Shown here: positions 3,381 to 49,970 of the stretch, piece after piece
How positions within the stretch are numbered: position 1 is the first letter of the stretch
Layout: the number at the start of each line of letters is the position of its first letter
From: Oscillospiraceae bacterium
Lineage (GTDB): Bacteria; Bacillota; Clostridia; Oscillospirales; Oscillospiraceae
Direction: 5' to 3'
DNA: 64,000 nt
Assembly (NCBI GenBank): GCA_034926415.1
Contig: JAYFRC010000034.1
Span: forward strand, 4,232 to 68,231
Made by a program: the position numbers and the translations under genes
The notes under the pieces: generated by a model
Database searches by the model: none
Told to the model about the DNA's origin: nothing
The model's input: the letters and a program-made list of their open reading frames with translations, nothing else

Positions 3381-3400
3381 CTCCATGCCTCCAATTCCAG

Positions 3401-3478
3401 ATTTGCGAATCATACGCAAATTATGCTATCACTCAGTCTGTTCTTTGTCAATCAAAATTGCGAACTGATTGCAAATTT
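3401..3478. promoter_or_regulatory. Candidate Fur/Zur operators in the zur / ferredoxin divergent spacer
   Basis: Inverted repeat ATTTGCG-N7-CGCAAAT at 3401-3421, about 20 bp upstream of the zur start. AAAATTGCGAACTGATTGCAAATTT lies at 3454-3478. The core TTGCGAA/TTGCAAA recurs four times in 78 bp. Confidence 0.35.
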
Positions 3479-3646
3479 ATAATTGAACAGCCCTAACTTC
3501 TGTACGTATGCCTTAATTCGGTTCTACCGCAACAGTTTGCGGCTGATTTTCCTCTTTACGACGACCGAAAAACTGTAATTCTGTTATGCTAACGATTTAC
3601 GGTAAGGTATATAATTATTTATTAAAAAGAAAGAAGGTTTTAAACA

Positions 3647-3877
3647 ATGGCTTTTGGCTTTGGACGAAAAGAAGCCGCCGATGGCAACGCGGACAAGAAA
3701 CTGGTGGTAAACAAACATCGCTGCCCGCAGAACCATCCCTGTCCCTCTGTGCGGGTATGCCCCGTCGGCGCGCTGTCCCAGAGCGGATTTTCTGCCCCTG
3801 TGGTGGATCAGGACAAATGCATCAGCTGTGGGAAATGCGTCCGTTTTTGTCCCATGAGAGCGCTCAACCTCGAATAA
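3647..3877 (+). CDS. Small 4Fe-4S ferredoxin-domain protein
   Basis: 76 aa. One canonical CISCGKCVRFCP motif plus an atypical CPQNHPCPSVRVCP motif. Confidence 0.7.
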   Translation: MAFGFGRKEAADGNADKKLVVNKHRCPQNHPCPSVRVCPVGALSQSGFSAPVVDQDKCISCGKCVRFCPMRALNLE

Positions 3878-3950
3878 CTATTAACCTGGAATAACCAGGT
3901 GGGGAAAGCGGCTCCGGCATCATTAAACGAAGCAGGTTTTTAAGTAATTT

Positions 3951-3986
3951 GCGGCATATGTCAATTTAGTTATTGACATATGCCGC
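3951..3986 (+). terminator. Perfect 14-bp inverted repeat: terminator-like hairpin after the ferredoxin gene and/or operator
   Basis: GCGGCATATGTCAA-N8-TTGACATATGCCGC followed by TTTCATTT. The right arm contains the -35 of the next promoter. Confidence 0.55.
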
Positions 3987-4001
3987 TTTCATTTGTATAA
4001 T
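3973..4001 (+). promoter_or_regulatory. Consensus sigma-A type promoter for the DUF134 operon
   Basis: TTGACA (3973-3978), 17-nt spacer, TATAAT (3996-4001), about 50 nt upstream of the DUF134 start. Confidence 0.6.
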
Positions 4002-4050
4002 CCAATATTAAATAACACATGCTAAAATAAAACAACAGGATGTGAAAACC

Positions 4051-4431
4051 ATGCCGCGTCCGAAAAAATGCAGGAAGGTCTGCTGCCTTCCGCCAATCAG
4101 CGAGTTTGTTCCCGCAGGAGAGGGCGTCCCCTGCCGCGAAACCGTCGTGATGACGGTGGACGAATATGAAACGGTTCGCCTCATCGACAACGAGGGCTTT
4201 ACACAGGAAGAATGCAGCAAATATATGAACATCGCGCGCACCACGGTACAGCAGATATACGACGGCGCGCGCAGGAAGATTGCCCAGGCGCTTGTGAAGG
4301 GACTGCCTCTCAGAATCGAGGGAGGCGACTACCATCTGTGCGACGGCAATGAACGCTATTGCGGCTGCGGAGGCTGCCGGAGACACCGGCGCGGCTGTAT
4401 GGAGCAGCTGCAGGAGGAGGAAAATCCATGA
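4051..4431 (+). CDS. DUF134/UPF0251 predicted DNA-binding protein with Cys-rich C-terminus
   Basis: MPRPKKCRKVCCLP N-terminus typical of DUF134. Sigma-70 region-4-like HTH (FTQEECSKYMNIARTTVQQIY). C-terminal HLCDGNERYCGCGGC. ATG at 4051 preferred over GTG at 4042. Confidence 0.75.
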   Translation: MPRPKKCRKVCCLPPISEFVPAGEGVPCRETVVMTVDEYETVRLIDNEGFTQEECSKYMNIARTTVQQIYDGARRKIAQALVKGLPLRIEGGDYHLCDGNERYCGCGGCRRHRRGCMEQLQEEENP

Positions 4432-4784
4432 TAATCGCAATTCCCGTTGATGAGGGAAAGGAAGCCGTATGCGTTTCCTTTGGACGCGCGCCGTATTTCC
4501 TGATTCACAATACCGAAAACGGCGAGACAAACGCAGTAGAAAACCCGGCGGCCGAGGCGCAGGGCGGCGCGGGCATTCAGGCCGCACAGTTTGTTGTGGA
4601 TACCGGCGCGGACGCGCTGATAACGGTTCGCTGCGGGCAGAACTCCGCGGATGTATTCAAAGCGGCGAATCTCAAAATTTACAGGGCGCAGGGCGAAAGC
4701 GCCTCCAAAAACCTCAAATCGCTTGCGGAGGGAAAACTTGAGGAGCTGAACAGCTTCCATGCGGGTTTTCACGGCAAGGCATGA
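4428..4784 (+). CDS. NifX/NifB-C-terminal-like (dinitrogenase FeMo-cofactor-binding fold) protein
   Basis: MIIAIPVDEGKEAVCVSFGRAPYFLI..AQFVVDTGADALIT pattern of the NifX-like family. AGGAGGAGG RBS. ATGA overlap with the DUF134 stop. Confidence 0.75.
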   Translation: MIIAIPVDEGKEAVCVSFGRAPYFLIHNTENGETNAVENPAAEAQGGAGIQAAQFVVDTGADALITVRCGQNSADVFKAANLKIYRAQGESASKNLKSLAEGKLEELNSFHAGFHGKA

Positions 4785-5617
4785 AGGTCTCGGTGCTCAG
4801 CGGAAAGGGCGGCGCGGGCAAGACCTTTGTGTCTGTGAACCTTGCCGCCGCCGCGAAAAGCGCGGTCTACATCGACTGCGATGTGGAGGAGCCGAACGGC
4901 CGCCTTTACTGGAAACCAAACGTCGAGAGCAAAACGCCGGTCGACGTTTTGGTCCCTACGTTCGACGAGGAAGAGTGCAGCGGCTGCCGGAAATGCGTGA
5001 AGTTCTGCCATTTTCACGCTCTGGCTTTTGTCAGGGATCGCCCGATGGTGTTTCACGAGGTATGTCATTCCTGCGGCGGCTGCGCGCTGGTCTGCCCGGA
5101 ACATGCCGTCTCTGAAGCCCCGCGTCAGGTGGGAGCGGTTGAAGAAGGCATGAGCGGTGACGTACGGGTTGTGACCGGAATCCTCAACAACGGCGAGGTC
5201 TCGGCTGTGCCTGTCATAAAATCCGCTCTGCGTGCGGGCGGCGAAGCCGAGTTCACGGTCATCGACTGCCCTCCCGGCAGCGGATGTCCGGTAATGGAAA
5301 GCGTGAAGGCTGCGGATTGCTGCCTGCTGGTGGCCGAACCCACCGCCTTCGGCTTCCACAATTTCAAGATGGTGCATCGGTTGGCCGTGCTGCTGCAAAA
5401 GCCCTGCGGCGTGATAATCAACAAGGCGGATACGCCCTACGCGCCGCTAGAAGAATACTGCGCGGCGCAGGGCCTTCCAATTTTGATGCGTGTCCCTTAC
5501 AGCGCGCATCTGGCCGCTCTGGGCGCGGCGGGAGAAATCACCGTGCAGTATGACGCGGACCTTGCAAAAGCATTTTGCGCTCTGCTGGATGCCGTCCGAA
5601 ATGGGGCGATCCTATGA
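4781..5617 (+). CDS. MinD/ParA-superfamily P-loop ATPase with inserted 2x[4Fe-4S] ferredoxin domain
   Basis: Deviant Walker A GKGGAGKT. CSGCRKCVKFC and CHSCGGCALVCP motifs. DCPPGSGCPV. ATGA overlap with the upstream gene. Confidence 0.8.
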   Translation: MKVSVLSGKGGAGKTFVSVNLAAAAKSAVYIDCDVEEPNGRLYWKPNVESKTPVDVLVPTFDEEECSGCRKCVKFCHFHALAFVRDRPMVFHEVCHSCGGCALVCPEHAVSEAPRQVGAVEEGMSGDVRVVTGILNNGEVSAVPVIKSALRAGGEAEFTVIDCPPGSGCPVMESVKAADCCLLVAEPTAFGFHNFKMVHRLAVLLQKPCGVIINKADTPYAPLEEYCAAQGLPILMRVPYSAHLAALGAAGEITVQYDADLAKAFCALLDAVRNGAIL

Positions 5618-6486
5618 AGAAACTGCTGATTCTAAGCGGCAAGGGCGGCACGGGCAAGACCACCACCGCCGCCGCGTTTATTCGCTTTGCCGCCGCCCGC
5701 GCCTATGCGGACTGCGATGTTGACGCGCCGAACTTGCATCTGGTATCCCCGATAAGCGGCGAGCCGGAGCGATTTGACTATCTGGGCTCGCAGAAAGCCT
5801 CCATTGATTCTCGGAAATGCATCGGCTGCGGGAAGTGCGCGGAGGCCTGCCGCTTTGATGCGATAAGCCGCACGGGAAACATTTTATCAGTCGACGAATT
5901 TTCCTGCGAGGGCTGTGGCGTGTGCGCGGAGCTCTGCCCCGAGGGCGCGGTCTCGCTTTTGGATGACGTGGCCGGAGAGGTGACGCTCTATCGTTCCCCG
6001 GCGGTGTTTGCCACGGCGGAGCTCAAAATGGGGCGCGGCAATTCCGGCAAGCTTGTGTCTGAGGTTAAGCTTGCGCTGGCGAACGCCGCGCGGGACGAGA
6101 ATCTCGCCATCATCGACGGCTCGCCCGGCATCGGCTGCCCGGTGATCGCCTCTATGGGCGGGGTGGATCTTGTGCTTATCGTGGCGGAGCCTTCGCTTTC
6201 GGGGCGCAGCGATCTTGAACGCATCCTGAAAACAGCGGAAATATTCGAGACAAAAGCGGCTGTCTGCGTCAATAAATACGACACAAGCCCTGAAAATACA
6301 GAGAAAATCTATCAATTTTGCGCCGGGCGCGGTATTCCCTTCGTTGGCCGGATTCCATACGACAAGCAGGCGTCCGCCGCCATCAACGCCGGAAAAAGCC
6401 TTGCGGATATAGACTGTGCCGCATCCCGAGCGCTGCACGAAGTGTTTGAGCGCACTATGGATCTGCTCGGAGTCGAAGCAAGTTGA
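5614..6486 (+). CDS. MinD/ParA-superfamily P-loop ATPase with inserted 2x[4Fe-4S] ferredoxin domain (paralogue)
   Basis: GKGGTGKTT, CIGCGKCAEAC, CEGCGVCAELCP, DGSPGIGCPV. The start at MKKLLIL gives an ATGA overlap with the upstream stop. Confidence 0.8.
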   Translation: MKKLLILSGKGGTGKTTTAAAFIRFAAARAYADCDVDAPNLHLVSPISGEPERFDYLGSQKASIDSRKCIGCGKCAEACRFDAISRTGNILSVDEFSCEGCGVCAELCPEGAVSLLDDVAGEVTLYRSPAVFATAELKMGRGNSGKLVSEVKLALANAARDENLAIIDGSPGIGCPVIASMGGVDLVLIVAEPSLSGRSDLERILKTAEIFETKAAVCVNKYDTSPENTEKIYQFCAGRGIPFVGRIPYDKQASAAINAGKSLADIDCAASRALHEVFERTMDLLGVEAS

Positions 6487-37429: not shown

Positions 37430-39396
37430 TGCTTGTTCTCTCCCCGAAGCTCTATTATGCGGTCGCGAAGTATCGCGGCGTACTCGAACTCGAGCATTTT
37501 GCTCGCCTCGCGCATCTCCTTTTCGAGCTTCGCAATCTCCGCGCGGCGTTCGCTGTCGTTCAGCTTTTTTCTGCGCCCGCCGGACTTTTTGTCCTCGCTC
37601 TCGGTTATCTCGAGTATATCGTGGACAGGCTTGACTATGGTCTTCGGCACTATGCCGTGGGCCTTGTTGAACTTGTCCTGTATATCGCGGCGGCGGTTGG
37701 TTTCATCTATCGCCGCCTTCATCGACGGTGTTGTCGTATCGGCGTACATTATAACCTTGCCGTCGGCATTTCGCGCCGCGCGGCCTATGGTCTGTATCAG
37801 AGACGTCTCGCTGCGAAGGAAGCCTTCCTTATCCGCGTCGAGTATCGCCACGAGCGAGACCTCCGGCATATCCAGTCCCTCGCGCAGAAGGTTGATGCCG
37901 ACAAGCACGTCGAACTCGCCTAGGCGCAGGTCGCGCACTATCTCCATGCGCTCTATGGTATTGACGCCGGAGTGCATATAGCGCACGCGTATGCCGACGC
38001 CGCGCAGATACTCGGTAAGGTCTTCGGCCATCTTCTTCGTTAGCGTCGTCACAAGCACGCGCTCGTTTATCTTCGCGCGCGCGTTTATTTCGCCGATGAG
38101 GTCGTCTATCTGGCCCGCGACCGGCCGCACATCTATCTTCGGATCGAGCAGTCCCGTCGGGCGTATGACCTGCTCGACTATCTGTCCCGAGCGCGAACGC
38201 TCGTACTCCGCGGGCGTGGCGCTTACATACACCACCTGATTTATATGCTTTTCAAATTCGTCGAACGTTAGCGGCCTGTTGTCGAAAGCACAGGGAAGGC
38301 GGAATCCATAATTTATCAGGCTCTCCTTGCGGGCGCGGTCGCCCGCGTACATGGCGCGGACCTGCGGTATCGTCACATGCGATTCGTCGATGAACATCAT
38401 AAAATCCTTCGGCATGAAATCCATCAGCGTCATCGGCGCGCTGCCCTTCGGCCTTCCCGAGATTATGCGGCTGTAATTCTCTATGCCGCTGCAGTGGCCT
38501 ATCTCCTGCATCATCTCCATGTCGTAAAGCGTGCGCTGCTTCAGCCGCTGGGCTTCGACAAGCTTGCCCTGCTCCTCGAACACCCTGAGCTGTTCGCCGA
38601 GCTCTATATTTATCTCGGATATGGCGCGCTTGAGCTTTTCCGGTGTCGTGACGTAGAGCGACGCCGGGTAGATGTTTACATGGCTGCGGCGGCTGAGGAT
38701 CTCGCCCGTCAGCGGGCGTATCTCGCATATTCTGTCTATCTCGTCGCCGAAGTATTCAACGCGCACCGCCCAGTCGCTGGCGTAGGCGGGGTAGATGTCA
38801 AGCGTGTCGCCGCGGACCCTGAACATATTGCGCTCGAACGCGACGTCGTTGCGCTCGTACTTTATCTCGGTCAGGCGGCGCAGCAGCTCCTCGCGCGGAA
38901 ATTCGTTCCCCTCGCGAAGAGATACGACCATGTTGGCGTAGTCCACGGGGTCGCCAAGGCCGTATATGCATGAGACTGACGCGACGACGATAACATCCCG
39001 CCGCTCAAACAGCGACGACGTGGCAGAGTTTCTGAGCCGGTCTATCTCGTCGTTCGTGGACGCGTCCTTGGCGATATATGTGTCGGTATGCGGAATATAC
39101 GCCTCGGGCTGGTAATAGTCGTAATACGACACGAAATATTCCACGGCGTTGTCGGGGAAAAATTCCTTGAACTCGGCGCAAAGCTGCGCCGCGAGAGTTT
39201 TGTTATGAGCCAGGACAAGCGTCGGCCGCTGAAGCTTTTCGATAACCTTGGCCATCGTGAAGGTCTTGCCGCTGCCGGTGACGCCGAGCAGCGTCTGCTC
39301 CGAGAGGCCGAGCCCGACGCCTTGTATGAGCTTTTCAATGGCCTCAGGCTGATCGCCCTTGGCGTCGTAAGGACTTACAAGTCTGAATTCTCCCAT
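37426..39396 (-). CDS. uvrB: Excinuclease ABC subunit B
   Basis: [10 protein letters not shown] Walker A, DESH box, C-terminal UVR domain ([11 protein letters not shown]). Start at [10 protein letters not shown] with an AAAGGAGAGG RBS (the ORF track extends to 39606). Confidence 0.95.
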
Positions 39397-39428
39397 CGTT
39401 CCGTCCTCTCCTTTAATATGGTACCGAT

Positions 39429-39457
39429 ATAATACCCGTTTTGAGCGCAAATTGCAA
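39429..39457 (-). promoter_or_regulatory. Putative uvrB promoter
   Basis: Minus strand: TTGCAA, 17-nt spacer, TATTAT, about 33 nt upstream of the start. Confidence 0.4.
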
Positions 39458-39460
39458 CAT

Positions 39461-39504
39461 ACGGCTGAAGCCGCCGCGCTATGCGCGGCGGCTTCAGCCG
39501 TTTT
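39461..39504. terminator. 19-bp perfect hairpin between the BKACE operon end and the uvrB promoter
   Basis: ACGGCTGAAGCCGCCGCGC-TAT-GCGCGGCGGCTTCAGCCGT. A T-run (TTTT) is present only on the plus strand. Confidence 0.5.
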
Positions 39505-39536: not shown

Positions 39537-40385
39537 TCAGCGGTCTATGCCGAGTATCTCGCGGGCCTGAGCCGCGGTCGCGACTTCGCGCCCGGCTACG
39601 GCGCACAATTTCGCCGCACGCTCTACAAGCTGCGGGTTCGTCGCGAGAACGCCCTTGCTGTACATGATGTTGTCCTCGAGCCCCACTCTGACACCGTCCG
39701 CGCCCATGGCCATAGCCGCAAACAGCATCGGAAGATGCGTCTTTCCGATTCCGGTGACGCTCCAGGTCGAGCCCTCGGGAAGCATGTCGTGAAGGAAGCT
39801 GAGGTTTCGGACGCTGCCATCGAGGCCGCCGGAAACGCCCATCACGAACTGATAATGTATTGGAGCTTTGAGCATACCCTTTTTGACATAGTATTCCGTG
39901 TTGCCGATAAAGCCGCCGTCAAAAACCTCAACCTCGGGCTTGATGTCGAGCTCGTTTACGGCCTTGCAGAGCTTTTCGAGAAATCTTGGGTGGTTTTCAA
40001 AAACAAAGCTGTTGCTCCAGTTGAGCGTTCCGGCGTCGAACGAGCACATCTCGGGACGAAGAGCGTAGAGATGCTGAAGGCGCTCGTCGTCGACATAGGA
40101 GCCGCCTGAAGTCGTGAGATTCAAAAGTATGTCTATATTCTCTTCCTTGCAGCGCTTGCGCGTGAGCTCCACTGCGTCCCTGAACTTTTCAAGGGCCATG
40201 GTCTTTTTGCCCTCGTCGTCGCGGACATGGATATGCGCGACGGAAGCGCCGGCTCTCGCGCAGGCTACGATGTCCTCAGCTATCTCCGCCGCGGTCAGCG
40301 GAACCGCGGGGTTCTGGGCTTTCTGGGTCCCCGCGCCGGTAAGCGCGACGGAAATTATAACGGGTTTGTTCGACATGGTGGTCAT
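39537..40385 (-). CDS. Beta-keto acid cleavage enzyme (BKACE/DUF849; 3-keto-5-aminohexanoate-cleavage-enzyme family)
   Basis: [36 protein letters not shown] signature of the family. 282 aa. Confidence 0.8.
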
Positions 40386-40429
40386 AATATGTATTTTCCT
40401 TTCAAGTTTTGATTATAGTCTTACGCGTT

Positions 40430-41626
40430 TCAGCACAGCTCTATAACCGCCGCCATTCCGAGACCTCCGGCGACGCAGAGCGTGGCCGCGCCGAGCTTTT
40501 CGTTCCGCTTAATCATCTCGTGCAAAAGCGTAACGACTATCCGCGCGCCACTGTTGCCGACGGGATGGCCGAGCGCTATCGCCCCGCCGTTGACGTTCGT
40601 TTTCGCCATGTCATCGTCATCGTAGCCGAGAAGCCGCATGCAGCCTATGCACTGGCCCGCAAACGCCTCGTTCATCTCGATGAGTCCAAAATCCTTAAGC
40701 GTCAGGTTCTGGTCGCGCATAACCTTTTGCATCGCGGGGACGGGGCCGAGAAACCACTTCCTCGGGTCGAGCGCTGCGGACGCGACTTCCTTTATAACGG
40801 CCAGGGGCCTGAGCCCCAACTCCGACGCCTTTTCGCGCGTCATTATGAACAGCGCCGACGCGCCGTCGTTTCTGCCGCTGGCGTTTCCGGCCGTAACCGT
40901 ACCGTCGCTGTGGAACGCCGGCTTAAGCTTTGCGAGCTTCTCGGCGTTCGTGGCCTTGGGATATTCGTCGGTATCGAAAACGACGTCCTCTTTTTTCATG
41001 TGCACGGTGACGGGAACTATCTCGTCTTTGAAGCGGCCCGAGGCTATGGCTTTCGCAGCCTTCTCCTGGCTCGCTAGCGCAAAATCGTCCTGCTCCTCGC
41101 GCGAGATCCCTACCTCTCTGCAATAATCGTCGACGGACTGTCCCATATTAAAGCGTCCGTAAACATCCTCGGGCTGTGACTTAAACTGCACCTCGGTCAG
41201 CGAATCGAGGAGCTGAGTGCTGCCTGTGCCGAGTCCGAAGCGGGCACCTCGGATATAGAACGGGGCTGTGCTCATGCTCTCCACTCCGCCGACTATCGCC
41301 GCGTCATAAACGCCTGATGCTATGTCCGACACGCCGCAGCCGAGCGCAGTCATACCGGACGCGCACTGGCGCATCACGGTAAACGCCGGAACGCTCTCGT
41401 CTATCCCGGCCTTGAGCGCCGCTATGCGCGCTATATTGGGATTATCTGACGACTGACGGCAATGGCCGAGTATGACCTGGCCTATACTTTTCGTGTCAAT
41501 TCCCGTCTCTTCAACTATCGCGCGGATGACCGGCGCGGCCAGATCCTCCGGCTGCACGCTCTTCAGCGTGCCACCGAGCTTTCCTACTGCCGTCCTTTTC
41601 GCACTTACTATTACAACCTCACGCAT
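40430..41626 (-). CDS. Acetyl-CoA acetyltransferase (thiolase II)
   Basis: Active-site context [26 protein letters not shown]. Confidence 0.9.
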
Positions 41627-41666
41627 TTTCCGAAGCCTCCGAATTTTTGATTATGATTATGTATTT

Positions 41667-42620
41667 TCAAACCGGGTCGTCCATGAATTTCTTTTCAAGA
41701 GCGAACGCCGAAAAAAGCTGTTTATCGCGCTTGGCCTTAAGCTCCTCAATGTTTTTTCCCGTGTAATCATAAAAGCCCTTGCCCGTCTTAATGCCGAGAT
41801 TGCCTGCGTCGACGAGTTTTCCGAGGGTTTTCGGCATATCGGTCGGAGCGGGCATGGTATAGCTGCGGTTGCGGAAATTGTTCGCTGTCATGTCGACGCC
41901 GCCGAAGTCCATTCTCTTGCAGAGTCCAAGCACCATGGCGCGCGGGATGAACGACGTCTTTACCGCGAGGTCTATATCCTCGGGCGTGCAGTAATCGTTG
42001 TCAAGCAAGTAGAAGACCTCCTGGTTCAGACACTGCTGGAGACGATTCACGATATAGCCGCGGATAAACTTGTGCATGCGGACCGGGGTCTTTCCGCCGC
42101 GGCGCAGAAGCTCCATTACAGAGTCGACGGCTTCCGGACGCGTCTTGTCGTTTCCGACGACCTCGACGAGAGGTATGACGTTGGCCGGCGCGTACCAGTG
42201 CGCGATGAGCGTATCGGGAAGCCGGCGCTCCGGCATTATCTCGAATATGTTGAGCGCAGAGGTATTCGACGCGATTATCACGCCCTCCGGCAGAAGCCTG
42301 TCGAGTTCGGCGTAAACGTTCTCCTTGACCGGCTTCTTCTCAACGACCGCCTCGACGACCATATCGGCGCCCGCGAGGGCTTTTTCAAGGTCGGCCTCGT
42401 ACGAGACCTTTCCGAAAAGCCCCTGTATCCGGTCTTGCGTTATAAGTCCCTCGTCCGCAAACGTATCAAGATTGTTGCGGTAGGTTATCTTCGCTCTGTC
42501 GAGCGCCTCGGCAGCAATGTCGTACATAACGACGTCGGCTCCCGACATCGCCATTATCTGCGCTATACCCGGGCCCATCACGCCCGCCCCTATAAGGGTT
42601 ATCTTTTGAATATCTTTCAT
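41667..42620 (-). CDS. 3-hydroxyacyl-CoA-dehydrogenase-family NAD-binding oxidoreductase
   Basis: IGAGVMGPGIA Rossmann motif and HADH N- and C-terminal domain pattern. 317 aa. Confidence 0.85.
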   Translation of the reverse strand: MKDIQKITLIGAGVMGPGIAQIMAMSGADVVMYDIAAEALDRAKITYRNNLDTFADEGLITQDRIQGLFGKVSYEADLEKALAGADMVVEAVVEKKPVKENVYAELDRLLPEGVIIASNTSALNIFEIMPERRLPDTLIAHWYAPANVIPLVEVVGNDKTRPEAVDSVMELLRRGGKTPVRMHKFIRGYIVNRLQQCLNQEVFYLLDNDYCTPEDIDLAVKTSFIPRAMVLGLCKRMDFGGVDMTANNFRNRSYTMPAPTDMPKTLGKLVDAGNLGIKTGKGFYDYTGKNIEELKAKRDKQLFSAFALEKKFMDDPV

Positions 42621-44032
42621 GATTGCACTCCCTCTTGTTTTGCTGCTAAAGCGGGCGTAAGCATATAGCCCGCAAACATTATTACAACGTCCGCTATTAT
42701 ACCCGCGAACAATGAATCGAATGGAAGGATACCGTCCAGAACGGTTCCGAATATAAGCACAAGCATCGGCCCGATTATTATCGACGCCACGGCGAAGCGG
42801 CGGTCGACTTTACCAGGCGCCCGGAGCAAAAAGCACAGCGGCACAAAAACCACCGCGCCTCGAAGCCCCATAGACATAAACGCAAAGTTAAGTATCGTAT
42901 CGCCGAGCGAGCCTGTCGACATGCAGCAGCCGAAAGCCAGCACCGCGACGATTATCGCTTTCGACAGCGCGCCGTTTTTGCGGGGCTCGTCAAATTTTCG
43001 CGTGAATTTCTGGATTATATCCCTGTTTACTATCGTGGATATGCCGAGCGCGAGTCCAGCGCCCGTACCGACGCTCGCGACGAACAGCGTGCCGAGAACT
43101 ATGCCTCCGAGCAGCGGCGGAAGGTTGTCGAGCGTAAACTGCGTCAGCGCCGTCTTTGCGACAAAGGTCGCGGTATCGGTCACGGAGCGCATGTAAAGTC
43201 CGACGATTATTCCGAACGCGCCTATAGGCGGTATCAGGAACGCGCTTATCAGCGCGCCGTTCCTCGCGGCCTTCTCCGTCTTCCCCGAGATGACGGCCTG
43301 AGCGTAGGTCTGCGTCGTCAAAACGCCAAGTATGAGCGAAAAACACGAGCCGAGGTCCTTGCCCGCTCCGCGGCAGAGCAGGCTGAAAAAATCAGTCCCG
43401 GTCGCAGCCTTCATGCTCTCGACCATCGCTATGAAGCTTCCGCAGCCTCCGGCTTTCGAAAGAGCTATCATGCCGCACGCGGCCATCGATATGTAAAGCA
43501 GGACAAGCTTGAGAACGCCGACTATACCCGCGCCCTTCGTCCCTCCGAACACGACGTAGAGGATCATGAAGGCCGCGGCTATCGCCACCGTCCACAGCGT
43601 GCCCATGGACGGCCACACGACAAGCACGACCGCGCTCGCAGCGAGGAGCTGTGATATTATATTTATGAACGTTCCGACGGCGTTGAGCACCGATGCGGTA
43701 AGCCCGGCCGCCGGCCCGTACTCCCTCCTTATCATACCGACAAGCGTTGGGCACTCCTGTGCCTTGAACGGCTTCACATACACGAGCGCGAGAACGAGAC
43801 ACGCAAGCCCTCCGCCAAGCGTGAACCACCACGCCGACATGCCGTAGTTATACGCCAGCTGCGCCGTTCCGACAGTCGACGAGCCTCCGACGATGGTGCC
43901 CATGATCACTCCGGCTATTATCGCCGAACCGTTCTTCTCGCTTCCGCCTTTTACGCGCATTCCGGAATATATCGCGAGCCCGGCAATAAGCGCGACGGCT
44001 ATCGCCATTCCGACGATTTGAAGCGTATCCAT
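42617..44032 (-). CDS. Sodium:solute symporter-like transporter
   Basis: 471 aa, about 12-13 TM segments, SSS-like N-terminus. Overlaps both neighbours. Confidence 0.55.
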   Translation of the reverse strand: MDTLQIVGMAIAVALIAGLAIYSGMRVKGGSEKNGSAIIAGVIMGTIVGGSSTVGTAQLAYNYGMSAWWFTLGGGLACLVLALVYVKPFKAQECPTLVGMIRREYGPAAGLTASVLNAVGTFINIISQLLAASAVVLVVWPSMGTLWTVAIAAAFMILYVVFGGTKGAGIVGVLKLVLLYISMAACGMIALSKAGGCGSFIAMVESMKAATGTDFFSLLCRGAGKDLGSCFSLILGVLTTQTYAQAVISGKTEKAARNGALISAFLIPPIGAFGIIVGLYMRSVTDTATFVAKTALTQFTLDNLPPLLGGIVLGTLFVASVGTGAGLALGISTIVNRDIIQKFTRKFDEPRKNGALSKAIIVAVLAFGCCMSTGSLGDTILNFAFMSMGLRGAVVFVPLCFLLRAPGKVDRRFAVASIIIGPMLVLIFGTVLDGILPFDSLFAGIIADVVIMFAGYMLTPALAAKQEGVQS

Positions 44033-44688
44033 CAGCCGACCATGCTCCCTATCTTCCCTGGTATGATTATGTCGGCTTCGGTCTTGGCGATAACTTCCTC
44101 GGCCGTGACTCCGGGCGCGAGCTCCTCTAGCACAAGGCCGGTTTCGGTCCTATGCAGGACGCACAGCTCTGTCACTATATAATCAGCCTCGCTCGCGGCC
44201 GTCAGCGGCAGTGTACATTTTTTGAGTATCTTGGGCTCGCCTGATTTCGTGCAGTGCTCCATGGTAATTATTACCAGCTTCGCACCTGCGACGAGATCCA
44301 TCGCGCCGCCCATTCCGGGCACCATCTTTCCAGGGACCATCCAGTTGGCGATATTTCCCTCCTGGTCCACCTCGAGCGAGCCGAGCACCGTCGCATCGAC
44401 GTGTCCGCCGCGGATAAGACCGAAGGACATGCAGCTGTCGAAGCACATTCCTCCCGGCACTATGCTTACCGGCATGCCGCCGGCGTTCACGACGTCCTTT
44501 TCCTCTTTGCCTTTTTCCGGGGCGGGGCCGAGGCCGATGAAACCGTTTTCAGACTGGAGCATGACGTCGACGCCGTCGGGAATATAATTCGCTATTTTGG
44601 TCGGCATGCCTATGCCGAGATTAACAAGGTCGCCGTCGTGAAAAAATCTCGCCGCGCGCGAGACGATAAGTTCTCTTCCGTCCATCAT
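44032..44688 (-). CDS. 3-oxoacid/acetate CoA-transferase subunit B
   Basis: LQSENGFIGLGP with the catalytic Glu motif. Confidence 0.85.
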   Translation of the reverse strand: MMDGRELIVSRAARFFHDGDLVNLGIGMPTKIANYIPDGVDVMLQSENGFIGLGPAPEKGKEEKDVVNAGGMPVSIVPGGMCFDSCMSFGLIRGGHVDATVLGSLEVDQEGNIANWMVPGKMVPGMGGAMDLVAGAKLVIITMEHCTKSGEPKILKKCTLPLTAASEADYIVTELCVLHRTETGLVLEELAPGVTAEEVIAKTEADIIIPGKIGSMVG

Positions 44689-45356
44689 TCCGTCTCCTTT
44701 ACGACCATGTCGACGCAGACTCCCGGCGTCATAACCTCATCCGGGTCGAGCTGTCCGACCTCGACTATTTCCTCGGCCTCCGCTATGACGAAATCCGCGG
44801 CCATGGCCATGACGGGGTTGAAGTTTCGGGCGCAGCGGTGATATACGAGGTTGCCGGACGTGTCCGCCTTCCACGCGTGTATGAGCGCGACCTCGGCGCG
44901 GAGCGGAGTCTCGAGCAGATAATCTTTTTCTCCGACGCTTATCGTTTTTTTGCCGTCCGCTACCACGGTGCCTATGCCGGTAGGAGTCAGCACTCCGCCA
45001 AGCCCCGTTCCGCCGCAGCGTATGCGCTCTGCGAGAGTACCCTGCGGCACGAGCGTCACCTGAAGCTCGCCGCTGTTCATCTGGCGCCCCACCTCCGGAT
45101 TGAGGCCTATGTGCGAAGCCGTGAGCGAATACACTCGCTTTTGGCATATAAGCGTTCCGATGCCGTCCGCATGGTCGTTGCCCGCGTCGTTCGATATGAG
45201 GCGTAATCCGCTGACACCCTTTTCCGTCATCTTTATTATGAAATTATTAGGCGAACCGACGTTGGTGAATCCCGCGATCATTATCGTCATTCCATCATGT
45301 ATCTTTTCAAGCGCTTTATCTGCGCTGACTACTTTCGAACGCACGGCTGCTGTCAC
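44685..45356 (-). CDS. 3-oxoacid/acetate CoA-transferase subunit A
   Basis: IMIAGF..GSP..LISNDAG..GGVLTPTG pattern. Confidence 0.85.
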   Translation of the reverse strand: MTAAVRSKVVSADKALEKIHDGMTIMIAGFTNVGSPNNFIIKMTEKGVSGLRLISNDAGNDHADGIGTLICQKRVYSLTASHIGLNPEVGRQMNSGELQVTLVPQGTLAERIRCGGTGLGGVLTPTGIGTVVADGKKTISVGEKDYLLETPLRAEVALIHAWKADTSGNLVYHRCARNFNPVMAMAADFVIAEAEEIVEVGQLDPDEVMTPGVCVDMVVKETE

Positions 45357-45394
45357 ATCCTCTCGTTTTTTTCGTTTCTTTTTTATTTTTAATA

Positions 45395-45451
45395 GTTTCC
45401 GAAATGGGGGCTCCCCACTGCGGTTTCCGCCCGGGGAAGCCCCTTTCGGAA
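45395..45451 (-). promoter_or_regulatory. Long GC-rich hairpin in the tctC-CoA-transferase spacer
   Basis: Minus strand: UUUCCGAAAGGGGCU..AGCCCC(CA)UUUCGGAAA, about 15 bp outer stem around a CCCC..GGGG inner stem, followed by an A-rich tract up to the RBS. Confidence 0.45.
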
Positions 45452-45485
45452 ATCTTATGCGTAATCCTTTGGTGAGGTAAGGGTA

Positions 45486-46463
45486 TTACTTCATCAGCTC
45501 GCCGTACTCGGCGTACTTGTCTTTTACGATCTGCTCGTAATCGTCGCCGGAGAGATACGCCCATGTCAGATTGCAGTTTTCAAGAGTAGTCTTGTAGGTG
45601 TCGTCATTCGCGGCGGTCTCGAAAGCCGTGCGGAGCTTTTCGACTATCGCGTCGTCCGTGTCTGCGGGAACGCAGATGCCCATGTAGGACAGAAGCTCTA
45701 TGTCGTAGCCCATCTCGCTGAGAGTCTCAACGTCGGGCGCGCTGTCCCAGCGCTGGTCGGTCGCGGAAGCGAGCAGACGCATTTCGCCGGACTCGACATA
45801 GGCGGTGAACGACGCCTGGTCGCACATCGCGCAGGGCAGGAAGCCGCCGAGGATATCGGTTATCATATCAGTCGTGGAGGAATAGTTGACGTAGTTGAAG
45901 CTCGCTCCGGTAGCCTTGGCAAGGTCGTCCATGGCAAAAGGCTGCGGATAGCCCGTCGCGCCGTAGTTTACCGCGCCCGTCTTGGCGGCGGTGATAAGGT
46001 CGTCGAGCGTCTGATAGGGCGAATTGGCGGCGACGATTATGCCGTAGCCGTACTGGCCAAACGCGCAGATATACTTAAAGCTGTCGGGAGTGTAGGTGAC
46101 ATCGAGCTGATAGGGAACGAGCGAGAGCGGAGAGAGCGTCGCAACGCCGATGGTGTATCCGTCGGCCTTGGAGTTTGCAAGCTCGGTGACGCCGACAGTG
46201 CCGCTGCCGCCGGTCAGGTTGGTGATGGTAATGGTGCCGTTGAGCGCCTTGCCCGCCGCGTCAGCGAGAGCGCGGGCCGCGAGGTCGGTGCCGCCGCCGG
46301 CGGAGTAGTTGACGATCATGTTGATGGCCTGATTCGGATAATCGGAAGCAGCATCGGTGCTCGTGCTTCCGCCCGTGCTTGAGCCGTTCGAGCCGCAGCC
46401 CACCAGCGAGAACGCCATTGACGCCGCCAGAACAAATCCGGCGATTGCTCTGATTCTTTTCAT
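45486..46463 (-). CDS. tctC: Tripartite tricarboxylate transporter substrate-binding lipoprotein (TctC/Bug family)
   Basis: Lipobox FSLVGCGS and Bug-family-like sequence. Adjacent to tctA/tctB. Confidence 0.8.
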   Translation of the reverse strand: MKRIRAIAGFVLAASMAFSLVGCGSNGSSTGGSTSTDAASDYPNQAINMIVNYSAGGGTDLAARALADAAGKALNGTITITNLTGGSGTVGVTELANSKADGYTIGVATLSPLSLVPYQLDVTYTPDSFKYICAFGQYGYGIIVAANSPYQTLDDLITAAKTGAVNYGATGYPQPFAMDDLAKATGASFNYVNYSSTTDMITDILGGFLPCAMCDQASFTAYVESGEMRLLASATDQRWDSAPDVETLSEMGYDIELLSYMGICVPADTDDAIVEKLRTAFETAANDDTYKTTLENCNLTWAYLSGDDYEQIVKDKYAEYGELMK

Positions 46464-46535
46464 TTTTTATCCTCCTGTTTTTTTGATTTTTTAATCCGTG
46501 TTCCGCAATTCGCCTGTCGGAACGCAAATTTTTAA

Positions 46536-48047
46536 TTAAAGTCCGTCCTGAAGCTGCTTGTCCTTGCGCTTTCCGCGAAGTATGAGCACCACGGAGATTA
46601 TCGTCGCCGCCCAGAATATCCAGCAAAGCGGCGAGGAGAAGAACGTTCCGACATCTCCGCCCGACAGAACAAGCGCGCGGCGGAAATTCTTTTCAAACAA
46701 AGGCGAGAGTATGAAGCCGATAAGAACACAGGCCATGGGGAATTTGAACTTCGAGAGGATATAGCCGATGACAGCGAACACGAGCATTATCCACACGTCG
46801 GTGAGGTTGGAGTTAAGCGCGTACACGCCGATGATGCAGAACATGACGACGGCCGGGAAAATTATCGTCGTTTCAAGCGAGCATATCTTCTTGAATGCCT
46901 TCCATGTGAGAAGCACTATCGCGACGAGCACGACGTTGCAGAGTATGAGGCCGGCGTAGACATTGTAAACCGTTGCCGGAGACTCCTGGAACACCAGCGG
47001 GCCGGGGGTAAGGCCCTGAACGATGAACGCAGACATGAGCAAAGCCGCGCCGGTGTCGCCGGGAACGCCGATAGAGAGCAGAGGTATCATGTTCGCGCCG
47101 CAGACCGCGTTGTTCGCGCACTCCGCGCCCGCGACGCCCTCTATCGCGCCGTGGCCGAACTCCTCGGGATGCTTCGCGTTCTTGTGCGCGACATCGTAGC
47201 CTATGTAGCACGCAAGCGCGGGCCCGAGGCCCGGAAGCGATCCGATACCGCAGCCGAGGAACGCGGAGGTTATCCAGTGGCGGAGGCAGGTCTTTGCGTC
47301 AGCAAGAGTAAATTTGTTGTCATCCTTGCAGGTCGGCGGAGGAAGCTGAGCCTTGGTATTGCCGAGGGCGACGCTTTCGACCTGCTTGAGAACCTCGGAC
47401 AGGGCGAGGAAGCCGATGAGCATTACCACGAGGTCGATGCCGGACGAGAGCTTCAGCACGCCGAAGGTCAGACGCGGAATGGTAAACGACATGTCCATTC
47501 CGACGCAGCCGAACATCAGTCCGACACAGCCGGCGAGCAGTCCCTTTATCATGGACTTTCCGGCGGCGGAGGCAATTATCGTCAGCGCAAATATCATAAG
47601 CACCGCATACTCCGCGGGGCCGAAGTTCAGGGCGTACTTCGCTATCGGCTGAGCTACGACTATAAGGACTATGCAGCTGAACAGGCAGCCGAACGCCGAG
47701 CTGAACAGCGCCGTCTTAATAGCCTTTCCGGCTTTGCCCTGCCGAGCCAGCGCGTAGCCGTCGGCCACTGTCGCAGCGGCTGCTGGCGTGCCGGGCGTGC
47801 CGATAAGTATGGCCGCGAGCGAGCCGCCAAAGGTCCCCGCGTTATACGCGGCGAGCAGCATTACGAGCGACTGCGTGGGCGTGAGGTAATACGTCATCGG
47901 TATGACGAGCGCTATCGCCATCGTAGCGGTCAGTCCGGGTATCGCGCCGAGGACAAGTCCAAGCGCGACGCCGCCGAACAGGAAAAGGATGTTCATCGGC
48001 ATCAGCACAGCCTCGAAACCGCTGAACAGCATTGAAAGTGCTTCCAT
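46536..48047 (-). CDS. tctA: Tripartite tricarboxylate transporter large permease TctA
   Basis: About 500-aa polytopic protein with the GxxxG-rich TctA pattern. ATG at 48047 preferred (ORF track: 48059). Confidence 0.85.
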   Translation of the reverse strand: MEALSMLFSGFEAVLMPMNILFLFGGVALGLVLGAIPGLTATMAIALVIPMTYYLTPTQSLVMLLAAYNAGTFGGSLAAILIGTPGTPAAAATVADGYALARQGKAGKAIKTALFSSAFGCLFSCIVLIVVAQPIAKYALNFGPAEYAVLMIFALTIIASAAGKSMIKGLLAGCVGLMFGCVGMDMSFTIPRLTFGVLKLSSGIDLVVMLIGFLALSEVLKQVESVALGNTKAQLPPPTCKDDNKFTLADAKTCLRHWITSAFLGCGIGSLPGLGPALACYIGYDVAHKNAKHPEEFGHGAIEGVAGAECANNAVCGANMIPLLSIGVPGDTGAALLMSAFIVQGLTPGPLVFQESPATVYNVYAGLILCNVVLVAIVLLTWKAFKKICSLETTIIFPAVVMFCIIGVYALNSNLTDVWIMLVFAVIGYILSKFKFPMACVLIGFILSPLFEKNFRRALVLSGGDVGTFFSSPLCWIFWAATIISVVLILRGKRKDKQLQDGL

Positions 48048-48190
48048 TTTTATGACCATTCCTTTCTCTTTGGCAGAGTCACAAAATGACCATGAAAAGG
48101 AATGGCCATAATGTGCGTTTTTTTCGGTTGCCGCCCATGCGGCGAGAAAAATGCACTTAAATCAATTAAAGTTTGAGTTTGTTTCAAACT
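48048..48190 (-). repeat. Copy B of the three-hairpin intra-operon element (tctB|tctA spacer)
   Basis: Same block order as copies A and C. The H1 5' arm plus loop can form 15 consecutive pairs with the tctA SD region. Confidence 0.8.
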
Positions 48191-48205
48191 TTTTCTCCTT
48201 CTTTC

Positions 48206-48670
48206 TTACGGCATCCGCAGCGACAGTCCGTAGTGGAAGCTGACATAGATCAGTATCGGCAATACGACGGCCGCAATGACAATCTTTTTCCAGCTCTTCT
48301 GTCCGTAAGCCCATATCAAGAATCCGAGGGTCACGATTGTCACTGGGATGTAGGGAAGGAAGTAAAGCATTATTGTGTAAGCGACCATTACAGCCAATGT
48401 CAAAAGCACAAGTTTTGCTTCCTTCTTACCAAGCGAATACGTTTCCTGATCTGCTCTGTCCTTTTTCTTTCTTCCAAAAACGAACATGCACGCGCCTAAA
48501 ATGATGAACAATACCGCTATCGCTTCCGGGAAAAATCTCGGGGAGTTGAACAGCAGATCGCACTGGACCGCTTTTATCTGCCAAGGTATTATAACCGCCG
48601 CAAACAGCACGCCCAACACAGCAAACACGATACCGATAATCTGTTCCGCCTTGCTCTCTTTCAAGCTCAT
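48206..48670 (-). CDS. tctB: Tripartite tricarboxylate transporter small permease TctB
   Basis: 154 aa, 4 TM segments, positioned upstream of tctA. Confidence 0.65.
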   Translation of the reverse strand: MSLKESKAEQIIGIVFAVLGVLFAAVIIPWQIKAVQCDLLFNSPRFFPEAIAVLFIILGACMFVFGRKKKDRADQETYSLGKKEAKLVLLTLAVMVAYTIMLYFLPYIPVTIVTLGFLIWAYGQKSWKKIVIAAVVLPILIYVSFHYGLSLRMP

Positions 48671-48794
48671 GGAATCACCCTTTCTCTTCAGTCTTTGTTA
48701 GCATTTTTGATGTGTCCAAATACTAATCTCAAAAGATTTATTTATCAATTCGCGGAATAAACAAAGAATTTATTTTATTTTGTTTACAAAACAG

Positions 48795-48809
48795 ATAAAA
48801 TCTATTTAT
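48795..48809. promoter_or_regulatory. Candidate LysR-type T-N11-A box in the AT-rich divergent spacer
   Basis: ATAAA-ATCTA-TTTAT palindrome within the 380-bp AT-rich region between tctB and the LysR gene. Confidence 0.3.
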
Positions 48810-49049
48810 GTTTATGATTTGCAGCTCTTATATTGGCTCTGCAGCGCGGTTTGAGGCTCTTTTTTAACAATTTTTTACCACAATTTTCTATAAATTAAGT
48901 TATTCTTTAAGCAAGTTATTGTTCTAATCTTCTAAAAAAGTTGGAATTTTGATGCTTTTCATTTTCGTTAAATATAAAACAAATAAAATTCACTTGAATT
49001 TAATATAAATTTTTATTATTATCACTTTTAGCATAAGGAGGTACTTTTT

Positions 49050-49970
49050 ATGGGATTCAGAGAACTTGAATATGTATGTGCGCTGGCGGAAAACAAGAGC
49101 ATAACGAAAACGGCAAAGGCGCTCGGGCTCACCCAGCCGGCGCTCAGCATATTTCTTAAAAATCTCGAGGCGGAGACGGGAACCCCGCTCTTTGAGCATG
49201 TCGGGAAGTCGCTTGTGCTCACGTACGCCGGTGAGCGTTATCTCCATTACGCGCGGGAGATACTCATAATGGAAAAAACGATGGATCACGAGCTTTCGGA
49301 ACTCCAGCTCGAGGACAAAGGCTGCCTGAGCCTGACGTGCATGCTGCCGAGAAGCACGTTTATGATCCCCGAGACGATACCCGCGTTCAAGCAGCTTTAT
49401 CCGAACGTGTCGATACAGCTTTACGAGGAGGTTGCATACGACGCGATAGAGCGCAACATACTTGACGGACGCGCGTCTTTAGGAATCGTCAACTATCAGC
49501 CGAAGGATCCTCACATAACGGCGATACCGCTTCATGAGGAGGAGCTGCTGCTGACCGTAAGCGACAACCATCCGATAGCCAAAAGGATGAACGCGCATCA
49601 TGGGGACAAGCCGCGAATCATCGACCTGAACGATTTCAAAAACGATCCGCTCATAATTCCGAAAAATACGCGCACTGCTGAACAGATACAGGCGATAACG
49701 CAAAAGCGCAGGCTCGACCAGCCCGTTTTTCTTGAGACGCGGAACATCGAAATTGCGCTTCGCCTCGCCTCCGAAGGGCTTGGAATCACCTTTCTCTGTG
49801 ACAGTCACATAAATTTCAAATACCTGCCCGACAACCTCGTATTCTTTTCGACCGCCGACCCCGACGCCAAAATGATGCTCTATCTCCTGTACCGCACTAA
49901 TTCCTACATGCCTTCGTATATCCAGAAATACATCGAAATGCTCAAGGATTACGCCTGCGGAAACCTGTAA
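49050..49970 (+). CDS. LysR-family transcriptional regulator
   Basis: N-terminal HTH (LEYVCALAENKSITKTAKALGLTQPALS), 306 aa. Divergent from the tct/BKACE operon. Confidence 0.9.
   Translation: MGFRELEYVCALAENKSITKTAKALGLTQPALSIFLKNLEAETGTPLFEHVGKSLVLTYAGERYLHYAREILIMEKTMDHELSELQLEDKGCLSLTCMLPRSTFMIPETIPAFKQLYPNVSIQLYEEVAYDAIERNILDGRASLGIVNYQPKDPHITAIPLHEEELLLTVSDNHPIAKRMNAHHGDKPRIIDLNDFKNDPLIIPKNTRTAEQIQAITQKRRLDQPVFLETRNIEIALRLASEGLGITFLCDSHINFKYLPDNLVFFSTADPDAKMMLYLLYRTNSYMPSYIQKYIEMLKDYACGNL

Follow-up and report, generated by a model that had tools for sequence, protein, structure and literature searches.

A proposed lower half of anaerobic phloroglucinol degradation, without the upper steps and combined with a tripartite tricarboxylate transporter, in an Oscillospiraceae operon

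Which acid is taken up and degraded by an operon that combines two transport systems with a BKACE, an enzyme that cleaves a beta-keto acid with the help of acetyl-CoA? The question is raised by a locus in a 64-kb stretch of DNA from an Oscillospiraceae bacterium (assembly GCA_034926415.1, contig JAYFRC010000034.1; the stretch that was analyzed is called the window below). The source, to judge from related sequences an uncultured gut member of this family, is represented by an assembly of 2.03 Mb (110 contigs, 94% completeness). Genes were called from a list of open reading frames (ORFs) together with Pfam and NCBIfam profiles, and the comparison contigs were annotated with a codon-usage-scored gene caller. 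The locus encodes the three components of a tripartite tricarboxylate transporter (TTT), both subunits of a CoA-transferase, a transporter of the sodium/solute symporter (SSS) family, a dehydrogenase of the 3-hydroxyacyl-CoA dehydrogenase (HAD) family, a thiolase and the BKACE, with a LysR-family regulator in divergent orientation; all ten genes of the initial annotation were recovered at their positions and in the same order, tctB first and BKACE last on the minus strand. That annotation had proposed a cycle of import, beta-hydroxy acid oxidation, BKACE cleavage, CoA transfer and thiolysis, which gene relatedness, residue patterns and trees support. Its view that the substrate could not be deduced was too pessimistic, since comparison with related clusters indicates the C6 skeleton of the lower phloroglucinol pathway, in which 3-hydroxy-5-oxohexanoate (HOH) is oxidized to triacetate (3,5-dioxohexanoate). 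Our analysis suggests that the operon represents the lower half of anaerobic phloroglucinol degradation as a unit of its own, combined with a TTT importer under LysR control. The pathway itself is already known; the proposed assignment of the operon to its lower part and the conserved truncated form with new importers are new here.

Homologues of the operon genes recur in clusters for the degradation of pyrogallol and phloroglucinol. Seven Oscillospiraceae genomes (L072-L075 and L081-L083) and one metagenome contig (L098) carry a BKACE homologue (59-64% identity in the seven genomes) in a recurring cluster with the order thiolase, short-chain dehydrogenase/reductase (SDR), MerR regulator, Cyclase-family protein, HAD-family dehydrogenase, BKACE, CoA-transferase subunits A and B, and SSS transporter. 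Genes for both subunits of pyrogallol hydroxytransferase, the large one (PF21423 with Molybdopterin) and the small one (Fer4_11), usually precede this cluster. BKACEs of Desulfobacterota with 65-68% identity (P0014, P0026 on L007, and those of L019 and L020) lie beside a PF04199 cyclase, an SDR, a 3HCDH-type dehydrogenase and a molybdenum enzyme resembling pyrogallol hydroxytransferase. The composition of the Oscillospiraceae clusters matches that of the phloroglucinol cluster of Clostridium scatologenes, which consists of phloroglucinol reductase (PGR), the ring-opening cyclohydrolase (DPGC), TfD, triacetate acetoacetate-lyase (TAL), thiolase and CtfAB (PMC10470551), with a pyrogallol entry step added. 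When the cluster proteins were searched against the genome studied here, the best matches of the thiolase (62% identity), dehydrogenase (58%), BKACE (62%), CoA-transferase subunits A (58%) and B (68%) and SSS transporter (52-56%) were all in the operon.

Neither phloroglucinol reductase nor the ring-opening cyclohydrolase was found in the operon or elsewhere in the assembly, which is 94% complete. In the reverse search, the best SDR match to the cluster PGRs was only 29-32% identical, the cluster cupin had no match in this genome, and the sole cyclase-family gene of the assembly (C63:8710-9501) is of another type and 27% identical to the cluster DPGC. Neither PGR nor DPGC is encoded in the window. 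The operon might still serve phloroglucinol degradation, with the SSS transporter importing the phenol and with unlinked, non-orthologous or assembly-missing genes providing reduction and ring opening. Such an arrangement would agree with the SSS orthologue that occupies the same place in complete clusters, with the fragmented draft state of the assembly and with the presence of the one cyclase-family gene beside another BKACE on contig C63, but it is difficult to reconcile with the low identities just given, with the complete clusters, all of which, as far as seen, have PGR and DPGC at most a few kb away from the dehydrogenase and BKACE genes, and with the conservation of the truncated form in three lineages. 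We regard it as improbable. Without PGR and DPGC, the organism would depend on a ring-opened acid released by community members or obtained from another source.

The truncated form is not confined to this genome. All ten genes are found in unchanged order on a contig from mouse gut (L005), with identities of 87% for BKACE, 79% for the dehydrogenase, 79% for the thiolase, 83% for TctA and 62% for the LysR regulator, which is encoded at the same position. Contigs L088, L089 and L107 belong to the lineage of L005, and neither PGR nor DPGC is present in L088 within the 10-kb flanks of the operon. L084 and L087 represent a third lineage (71-78% identity for TctC, 78-82% for the CoA-transferase, 72% for the SSS transporter and 79% for the dehydrogenase). 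BKACE is 87-88% identical in a sister species, and TctA is 83-85% identical in L005 and L084. Because independent metagenome contigs (L005, L088, L084 and L087) share this gene order, the block is not a chance juxtaposition, and because the flanking genes differ among lineages, it behaves as a single selected unit. The operon of L087 has the same truncated, TTT-bearing layout (TctC 71%, CoA-transferase 80-82%, SSS transporter 72% and dehydrogenase 79% identity), and its thiolase and BKACE are of the canonical-cluster type, the BKACE being 76% identical to that of L072 and 58% identical to that of the window. The two BKACE types are thus interchangeable in this operon, and the exchange is the strongest indirect argument that the operon would catalyze the same reaction as the complete phloroglucinol clusters.

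The dehydrogenase tree is consistent with the same origin. The operon enzyme groups with its three nearest relatives in a clade with an SH-like approximate likelihood-ratio test (SH-aLRT) support of 99, which is sister to the dehydrogenases of seven Oscillospiraceae phloroglucinol clusters (SH-aLRT 99), and both clades lie inside a larger one that includes the dehydrogenases of Desulfobacterota clusters (SH-aLRT 99). The operon enzyme is bracketed by cluster dehydrogenases, which argues for descent from a TfD-type ancestor. It reached no equivalog cut-off among the NCBIfam models, the best score (191 bits) being that of a free-acid dehydrogenase of a pyridoxine pathway. Alignment to Hbd of Clostridium butyricum (4KUG) showed that Lys56 and Asn221 of Hbd, two CoA-contact residues, are replaced by Leu and Ile; TfD, the free-acid (S)-3-hydroxy-5-oxohexanoate dehydrogenase of C. 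scatologenes, is without the same two residues (PMC10470551). The operon enzyme is predicted to act, as TfD does, on a free (S)-3-hydroxy acid.

These data also bear on the idea that the locus is a plain acetoacetate/3-hydroxybutyrate module of the butyrate type, in which the dehydrogenase would act on 3-hydroxybutyryl-CoA and the BKACE would be inactive or incidental. The combination of CoA-transferase, thiolase and HAD-family enzyme resembles the acetoacetate/butyrate toolkit, and Hbd structures were among the top matches in a PDB sequence search with the dehydrogenase (about 142 bits, a likeness at the family level only). The score on the Hbd model (172 bits) is nevertheless far from the cut-off of 408, the CoA-contact residues are absent, and contig C52 encodes a true Hbd paralogue, which falls with 4KUG in the tree, apart from the operon dehydrogenase; the BKACE keeps all of its metal-binding and catalytic residues and is highly conserved in a sister species. 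A butyrate-type module is very improbable on these grounds, and so is the scenario of an Hbd-type dehydrogenase with an inactive BKACE that the initial annotation had allowed for.

Carnitine or dehydrocarnitine was considered as the substrate and rejected, since the dehydrogenase scored 99-125 bits on the carnitine dehydrogenase models, with cut-offs of 414-592, and betainyl-CoA genes were absent. The analogy with carnitine dehydrogenase that had been drawn earlier is therefore unsupported.

The BKACE matches its family profile over the full length and appears to be an intact enzyme. His51, His53, Glu153, Arg233, Glu237 and Asp238 align with His46, His48, Glu143, Arg226, Glu230 and Asp231 of Kce, the BKACE of lysine fermentation; the zinc-binding and catalytic residues are kept, and the enzyme is not of the inactive 'G7' type. 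The catalytic Glu and Arg of the family have been discussed for BKACE15 (PMC11961710). In Kce, Glu14 binds the 5-amino group of the substrate in the lysine pathway, and CsTAL, the characterized TAL of C. scatologenes, has Trp at this position (PMC10470551). The operon BKACE has Gly19 there, and the BKACEs found in cluster contexts have Gly or Ala.

By score alone, Kce is the best match of the operon BKACE, both among NCBIfam models (NF052387, 288.1 bits) and in the PDB (211 bits, again at the family level only), and the enzyme could in principle be a lysine-fermentation Kce with its partner genes elsewhere. This is hardly credible, given a cut-off of 382 bits, the replacement of Glu14 by Gly (PMC10470551) and the properties of a paralogue on contig C15. 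In the C15 paralogue Glu14 is present; its position in the tree is with Kce (SH-aLRT 99), and its neighbors are a kdd-like dehydrogenase on one side and a DctPQM TRAP transporter on the other (C15:10954-16206), indicating that a lysine-type enzyme is encoded elsewhere in the genome; this C15 region is likely a lysine-fermentation or related 3,5-diaminohexanoate module. In agreement with the initial annotation, kamA, kamDE, kdd and kal were not found in the operon or its flanks, and the membership in the Kce subgroup that it had named as a possible refutation is not borne out. A Kce role, on score and Glu14, and a butyrate-type module, on the residues, score and tree position of the dehydrogenase, are essentially excluded.

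The operon gene and P0002-P0007 form a clade in the BKACE tree. Its sister group consists of 13 BKACEs (SH-aLRT 99), and the joint node has a support of 91. Twelve of the 13 were seen inside phloroglucinol/pyrogallol clusters, and the remaining one (L076) was seen only with a CoA-transferase and an SSS transporter. The two clades share 117 of 282 alignment columns as conserved and identical, and only six conserved columns differ, the changes fixed in the operon clade being T16, Q21, G157, V181, S196 and T211. The BKACE is predicted to be similar to triacetate acetoacetate-lyase, converting a beta-keto acid and acetyl-CoA to acetoacetate and an acyl-CoA.

The separate clade with its own fixed changes raises the alternative that the chemistry was retained and the substrate was not. 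After the loss of PGR and DPGC, the dehydrogenase and BKACE would have shifted to another beta-hydroxy acid imported by the TTT system, such as 3-hydroxyhexanoate (yielding butyryl-CoA), 3-hydroxyvalerate, 3,5-dihydroxyhexanoate or 5-hydroxy-3-oxohexanoate, or 3-hydroxyadipate (yielding succinyl-CoA), and the acyl-CoA product would need no dedicated enzyme. A new LysR regulator in place of MerR, the added TTT importer, the known promiscuity of BKACEs (PMC11961710) and a genome with about nine BKACE modules, most with an acid transporter, which suggests a lifestyle built on several such acids, would all fit a shift of this kind. The canonical-cluster BKACE in the operon of L087, the nesting of the dehydrogenase within cluster dehydrogenases and motif regions nearly identical to those of cluster-linked BKACEs argue for an unchanged substrate. 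For an acid with a second carboxylate, such as 3-oxoadipate, the replacement of the Lys/Arg of the sister clade by Gln would be unfavorable, and the score on the 3-oxoadipate-type model NF053568 was 217.7 bits against a cut-off of 350. Overall, a shift of substrate is conceivable but seems to us unlikely.

In the reading that we favor, HOH or triacetate is imported and converted through acetoacetate and acetoacetyl-CoA to acetyl-CoA, and we consider this moderately probable. TctABC, the SSS transporter or both would import a C6 3,5-dioxygenated hexanoate, for which (S)-HOH is the top candidate and triacetate is also possible. The TfD-like dehydrogenase would oxidize HOH to triacetate with NAD(P)+, and the BKACE would transfer the acetoacetyl part of triacetate to acetyl-CoA, giving acetoacetate and acetoacetyl-CoA. 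The CtfAB-type CoA-transferase would then activate acetoacetate, and the thiolase would split both molecules of acetoacetyl-CoA, for a net conversion of HOH + NAD+ + 2 CoA to 2 acetyl-CoA + acetate + NADH. The scheme assigns a role to every gene of the operon. An acyl-CoA product identical to acetoacetyl-CoA would explain why a thiolase adjoins the BKACE, and the fact that the operon encodes no enzyme for any other acyl-CoA would fit triacetate as the BKACE substrate. The enzyme activities, the transported molecule and the cross-feeding that such uptake would imply are deduced from the gene content, relatedness and residue patterns observed.

Several observations weigh against this assignment. 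The operon BKACE clade is sister to the cluster-linked clade and not nested in it, and two of its fixed changes may matter for the substrate: Gln21 stands where the sister clade has Lys or Arg, two residues past the Glu14 position and probably facing the same pocket, and Gly157 stands where all but one member of the sister clade have Thr, so that a shift in BKACE specificity is possible. CsTAL falls in a different BKACE clade, characterized by Trp at the Glu14 position (Lacrimispora and C. boliviensis loci L030-L039), which also holds several other BKACE paralogues of this genome. The operon BKACE reached 179.5 bits on the model of 3,5-dioxohexanoate:acetyl-CoA transferase (NF053538), which has a cut-off of 430; the model also rejects P0061 (164.4 bits), a BKACE encoded within a canonical Oscillospiraceae cluster, which indicates that it covers another lineage. 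The SSS transporter is kept at the position that it has in complete clusters, where phenol import is possible, and homologues of TctC with 63-69% identity are encoded by stand-alone tctBAC operons in housekeeping surroundings, so the operon TctC may recognize a commoner acid. The assembly, at 94% completeness and in 110 contigs, leaves some room for missed genes. Finally, the literature on extracellular HOH or triacetate in gut samples yielded no measurement, only citations of the 1987 work on E. oxidoreducens.

The CoA-transferase, thiolase and transporters were also compared with their cluster counterparts. Subunit A scored 285 bits on NF007394 (cut-off 315) and is 55-58% identical to subunit A of the Oscillospiraceae phloroglucinol clusters and 71% identical to that of L093. 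Subunit B, 65-69% and at most 79% identical to the canonical-cluster subunit, has the SENG motif of family I 3-oxoacid CoA-transferases at residues 46-49, with the catalytic Glu as residue 47. The enzyme is predicted to activate acetoacetate to acetoacetyl-CoA, and the thiolase, 54-62% identical to canonical-cluster thiolases, to form two acetyl-CoA from acetoacetyl-CoA. The SSS transporter is 52-56% identical to those of L073 and L083 and 63-69% identical to those of L090-L104, and we judge it to be orthologous to the SSS transporter that follows ctfB or tfd in canonical clusters. It is only 44% identical to its counterpart in L005 (L005:5652-7163), although the enzymes of the two operons are 75-87% identical, and 72% identical to that in L084 (L084:8502-9932). 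In canonical clusters, too, this position is taken by either of two SSS types that are only distantly related (23-28% or 52-69% identity). These uneven identities suggest that the transporter slot has been exchanged repeatedly. TctC begins with MKRIRAIAGFVLAASMAFSLVGC, which includes a lipobox (…SLVGC).

The features of the locus are collected in Table 1. Overlaps of 1-4 bp at the dehydrogenase/SSS, SSS/CoA-transferase B and CoA-transferase B/CoA-transferase A junctions support co-translation of these genes. A promoter and terminator scan found no internal terminators in the operon, and the hairpin between tctC and the CoA-transferase genes may be a site of processing or attenuation. The spacer between tctB and tctA is about 146 bp long, versus 18 bp in L005 and L084, consistent with an insertion in the region 48048-48190. 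The hairpin that closes the operon lies upstream of the uvrB promoter and has no U-tract on the minus strand. Beyond it is the unrelated uvrB gene, which has a promoter-like site and a ribosome-binding site of its own. Translation of uvrB most likely starts from the ATG at 39396, which is preceded by AAGGAGAGG and a promoter-like TTGCAA-17-TATTAT (region 39396-39461); the start of the longest ORF, at 39606, would overlap the BKACE gene.

Table 1. Coordinates of the operon and adjoining features in the window, and of the other BKACE genes of the assembly (contig:positions).
Feature	Position	Strand	Evidence or description
Perfect 18-bp GC hairpin at operon end	39462-39500	-	Fold -46.9 kcal/mol, z = -8.95
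BKACE	39537-40385	-	PF05853, 320.9 bits, profile 1-274 of 274 (full length)
Thiolase	40430-41626	-	TIGR01930, 435.9 bits; Cys/His/Cys motifs present
HAD-family (3HCDH) NAD(P)-dependent dehydrogenase	41667-42620	-	PF02737 + PF00725
SSS-family secondary transporter	42617-44032	-	PF00474 (SSF), 57.5 bits, weak but significant
CoA-transferase subunit B (AtoA/CtfB type)	44032-44688	-	TIGR02428, 309.6 bits, above cut-off
CoA-transferase subunit A (AtoD/CtfA type)	44685-45356	-	PF01144; TIGR02429 above cut-off
Nested GC-rich hairpin in the 130-bp tctC/CoA-transferase spacer	45395-45451	-	Sequence inspection
tctC, TTT solute-binding lipoprotein	45486-46463	-	PF03401, 156.7 bits
tctA, TTT large membrane subunit	46536-48059	-	PF01970, 469.7 bits
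tctB, TTT small membrane subunit	48206-48670	-	PF07331, 78.7 bits
Divergent control region	48671-49049		379 bp, 25% GC
LysR-family regulator	49050-49970	+	Pfam HTH_1 + LysR_substrate
Other BKACE genes	C48:16899-17747, C15:12022-12846, C33:1-845 (continues on C43), C96:12566-13414, C18:23533-24393, C102:26586-27578		
BKACE gene ends	C16:72999-73160, C63:11586-11747, C14:2-139		

The control region agrees with the AT-rich region of 380 bp that had been described initially, its GC content standing well below the 56% of the operon. Alignment with the corresponding spacers of L005 and L084 revealed a block at about 48738-48814, in the tctB-proximal half, that is conserved in the three lineages and contains the invariant GCGAATTGA. 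In the window, a T-N11-A dyad, TGTTTACAAAACA, is present at 48781-48793, and a promoter scan detected promoter-like hexamers on both strands. The conserved block and the dyad presumably have a regulatory role. The LysR regulator, whose best match among the regulators of canonical phloroglucinol clusters was 22% identical, is judged not to be orthologous to either their MerR or their LysR regulators.

The genome as a whole is rich in BKACE genes. The assembly contains 11 BKACE matches, consisting of seven full genes and several end fragments, or about nine genes. Among 151 sampled Oscillospiraceae genomes, 69 have BKACE genes, usually in 1-5 copies; only one genome (2.9 Mb, 12 matches) exceeds the present one of 2.0 Mb, and one of 4.3 Mb equals its 11 matches. 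Most copies adjoin a carboxylate transporter (AtoE/SCFA_trans, SSF or TRAP) and a dehydrogenase, thiolase or CoA-transferase, and several are under sigma-54 activators. The operon studied here thus appears as one instance of a design that is repeated in this organism. A broader and more tentative proposal, which we would put forward as a possibility only, is that ring-opened intermediates (HOH or triacetate) are exchanged in the gut, and that small-genome Oscillospiraceae dropped the reductase and the hydrolase, recruited a LysR-controlled, high-affinity TTT system and scavenge these acids from primary degraders of polyphenols; the organism, with the operon as one of about nine BKACE modules, would be a specialist fermenter of beta-hydroxy and beta-keto acids, and its TctC would be the first receptor known to recognize a product of polyphenol ring fission.

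Other arrangements of the same gene families were observed in the comparison contigs. A MerR regulator, Cyclase-family protein, dehydrogenase, 107-residue ORF and SSS transporter are encoded in this order at L090:7533-12720, L101:6244-11668 and L103:2021-7218. A human gut contig (L093:41-7360) has MerR, Cyclase, dehydrogenase, CoA-transferase A/B and SSS genes, and L097:3354-7138 has only the dehydrogenase, CoA-transferase A/B and SSS genes. The modules of L090, L101, L103 and L093 have no adjacent BKACE, thiolase or SDR gene. The phloroglucinol gene set therefore appears to be shuffled into several partial modules in gut Oscillospiraceae. On contig L008 (positions 3-6223), a BKACE 77% identical to that of the window follows a sigma-54/PAS activator, a dehydrogenase and a thiolase and precedes a single-chain CoA-transferase of the AcetylCoA_hydro type; no TTT, SSS, PGR or DPGC gene was seen on this stretch.

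A cyclase-family hydrolase of the other type is paired directly with a BKACE at C63:8710-11747 in the present genome and at L024:2467-4082, L027:8300-10843 and L028:8225-10825. These pairs have no adjacent SDR, their dehydrogenase is absent or at least 7 kb away, and their cyclase is 27-28% identical to the DPGC-like one; through direct hydrolysis of a cyclic precursor, they might yield a beta-keto acid. One gut cluster of Lachnospiraceae is very widespread (L001-L004:8489-15633; P0060, in 1488 blocks of the assembly collection) and encodes a thiolase, BKACE, cupin, SDR, Creatinase_N/Peptidase_M24 protein, MFS transporter and HAD-family dehydrogenase, with pta/ack and a sigma-54 activator nearby. 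The M24-fold protein stands at the place expected for the cyclase-family ring hydrolase.

Phloroglucinol is a common funnel in the anaerobic breakdown of flavonoids and tannins, and its pathway was solved only in 2023 and has been treated as the trait of a single organism. If the assignment proposed here is correct, the pathway is split between community members, and a count of complete PGR-DPGC-TfD-TAL clusters alone would miss organisms that benefit from dietary polyphenols. The operon offers a starting point for finding the ligand of a TTT binding protein from a Gram-positive bacterium. The operon could also give a function to an uncharacterized BKACE clade that is widespread in gut Clostridia, and if its substrate is a different acid, it would still be a compact system for finding a new BKACE reaction.

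Among known systems, the anaerobic phloroglucinol cluster of C. scatologenes comprises PGR, DPGC, TfD, TAL, thiolase and CtfAB, and the biochemistry of its TfD and TAL has been established (Zhou et al., 2023; PMC10470551). The operon shares with it the enzyme families and logic of the lower pathway, a HAD-family dehydrogenase of the free-acid type without the CoA-contact residues, a BKACE with a non-acidic residue at the Kce Glu14 position, and the adjacent thiolase and two-subunit CoA-transferase. It differs in having neither phloroglucinol reductase nor a cyclase-family cyclohydrolase, in its different LysR regulator and in uptake by TTT and SSS systems rather than an MFS transporter. The operon BKACE is 53-54% identical to the Trp-type BKACEs of the Lacrimispora and C. 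boliviensis clusters, which are of the CsTAL type. The closest relatives of six operon genes are in the Oscillospiraceae (L072-L075, L081-L083 and L098) and Desulfobacterota (L007, L019 and L020) clusters, with identities of 55-59% for the dehydrogenase, 59-68% for the BKACE, 54-62% for the thiolase, 55-69% for the CoA-transferase and up to 69% for the SSS transporter, and with a similar local order of dehydrogenase, BKACE, CoA-transferase, and SSS transporter or thiolase. Unlike the operon, these clusters carry a PGR-like SDR, a DPGC-like Cyclase, a MerR regulator and often a molybdenum transhydroxylase, and are without TctABC.

More distant systems share the reaction type. Kce has the same fold, zinc-binding and catalytic residues and type of reaction as the operon BKACE; unlike Kce, the latter has no Glu14 and no kam, kdd or kal neighbors, and a separate Kce-like paralogue is present in the genome. 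BKACE15 of Paracoccus denitrificans (PDB 8RIO, 8RIP and 9HNF) is active on 3,5-dioxohexanoate and related C5-C6 beta-keto acids (PMC11961710). Its study bears out the catalytic base, equivalent to Glu153 of the operon BKACE, but it is of a distant lineage (118 bits in two stretches), has 310 residues and comes from a proteobacterial aromatic-degradation context. Price et al. (bioRxiv 10.1101/205583) outlined the oxidative deoxyribonate pathway, to which fitness assays with mutants of three bacterial genera had led them. This pathway follows the same logic, in that a 3-hydroxy acid is oxidized to a beta-keto acid, BKACE acts on the latter with acetyl-CoA, and acetoacetate passes to a CoA-transferase and thiolase; its acyl-CoA product is glyceryl-CoA. 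The TTT system of the operon has all three components of the TctABC/Bug family, with full-length Pfam matches and a lipoprotein as binding protein, as expected in a Gram-positive bacterium, and differs from known TctABC systems in being joined to a BKACE catabolic operon.

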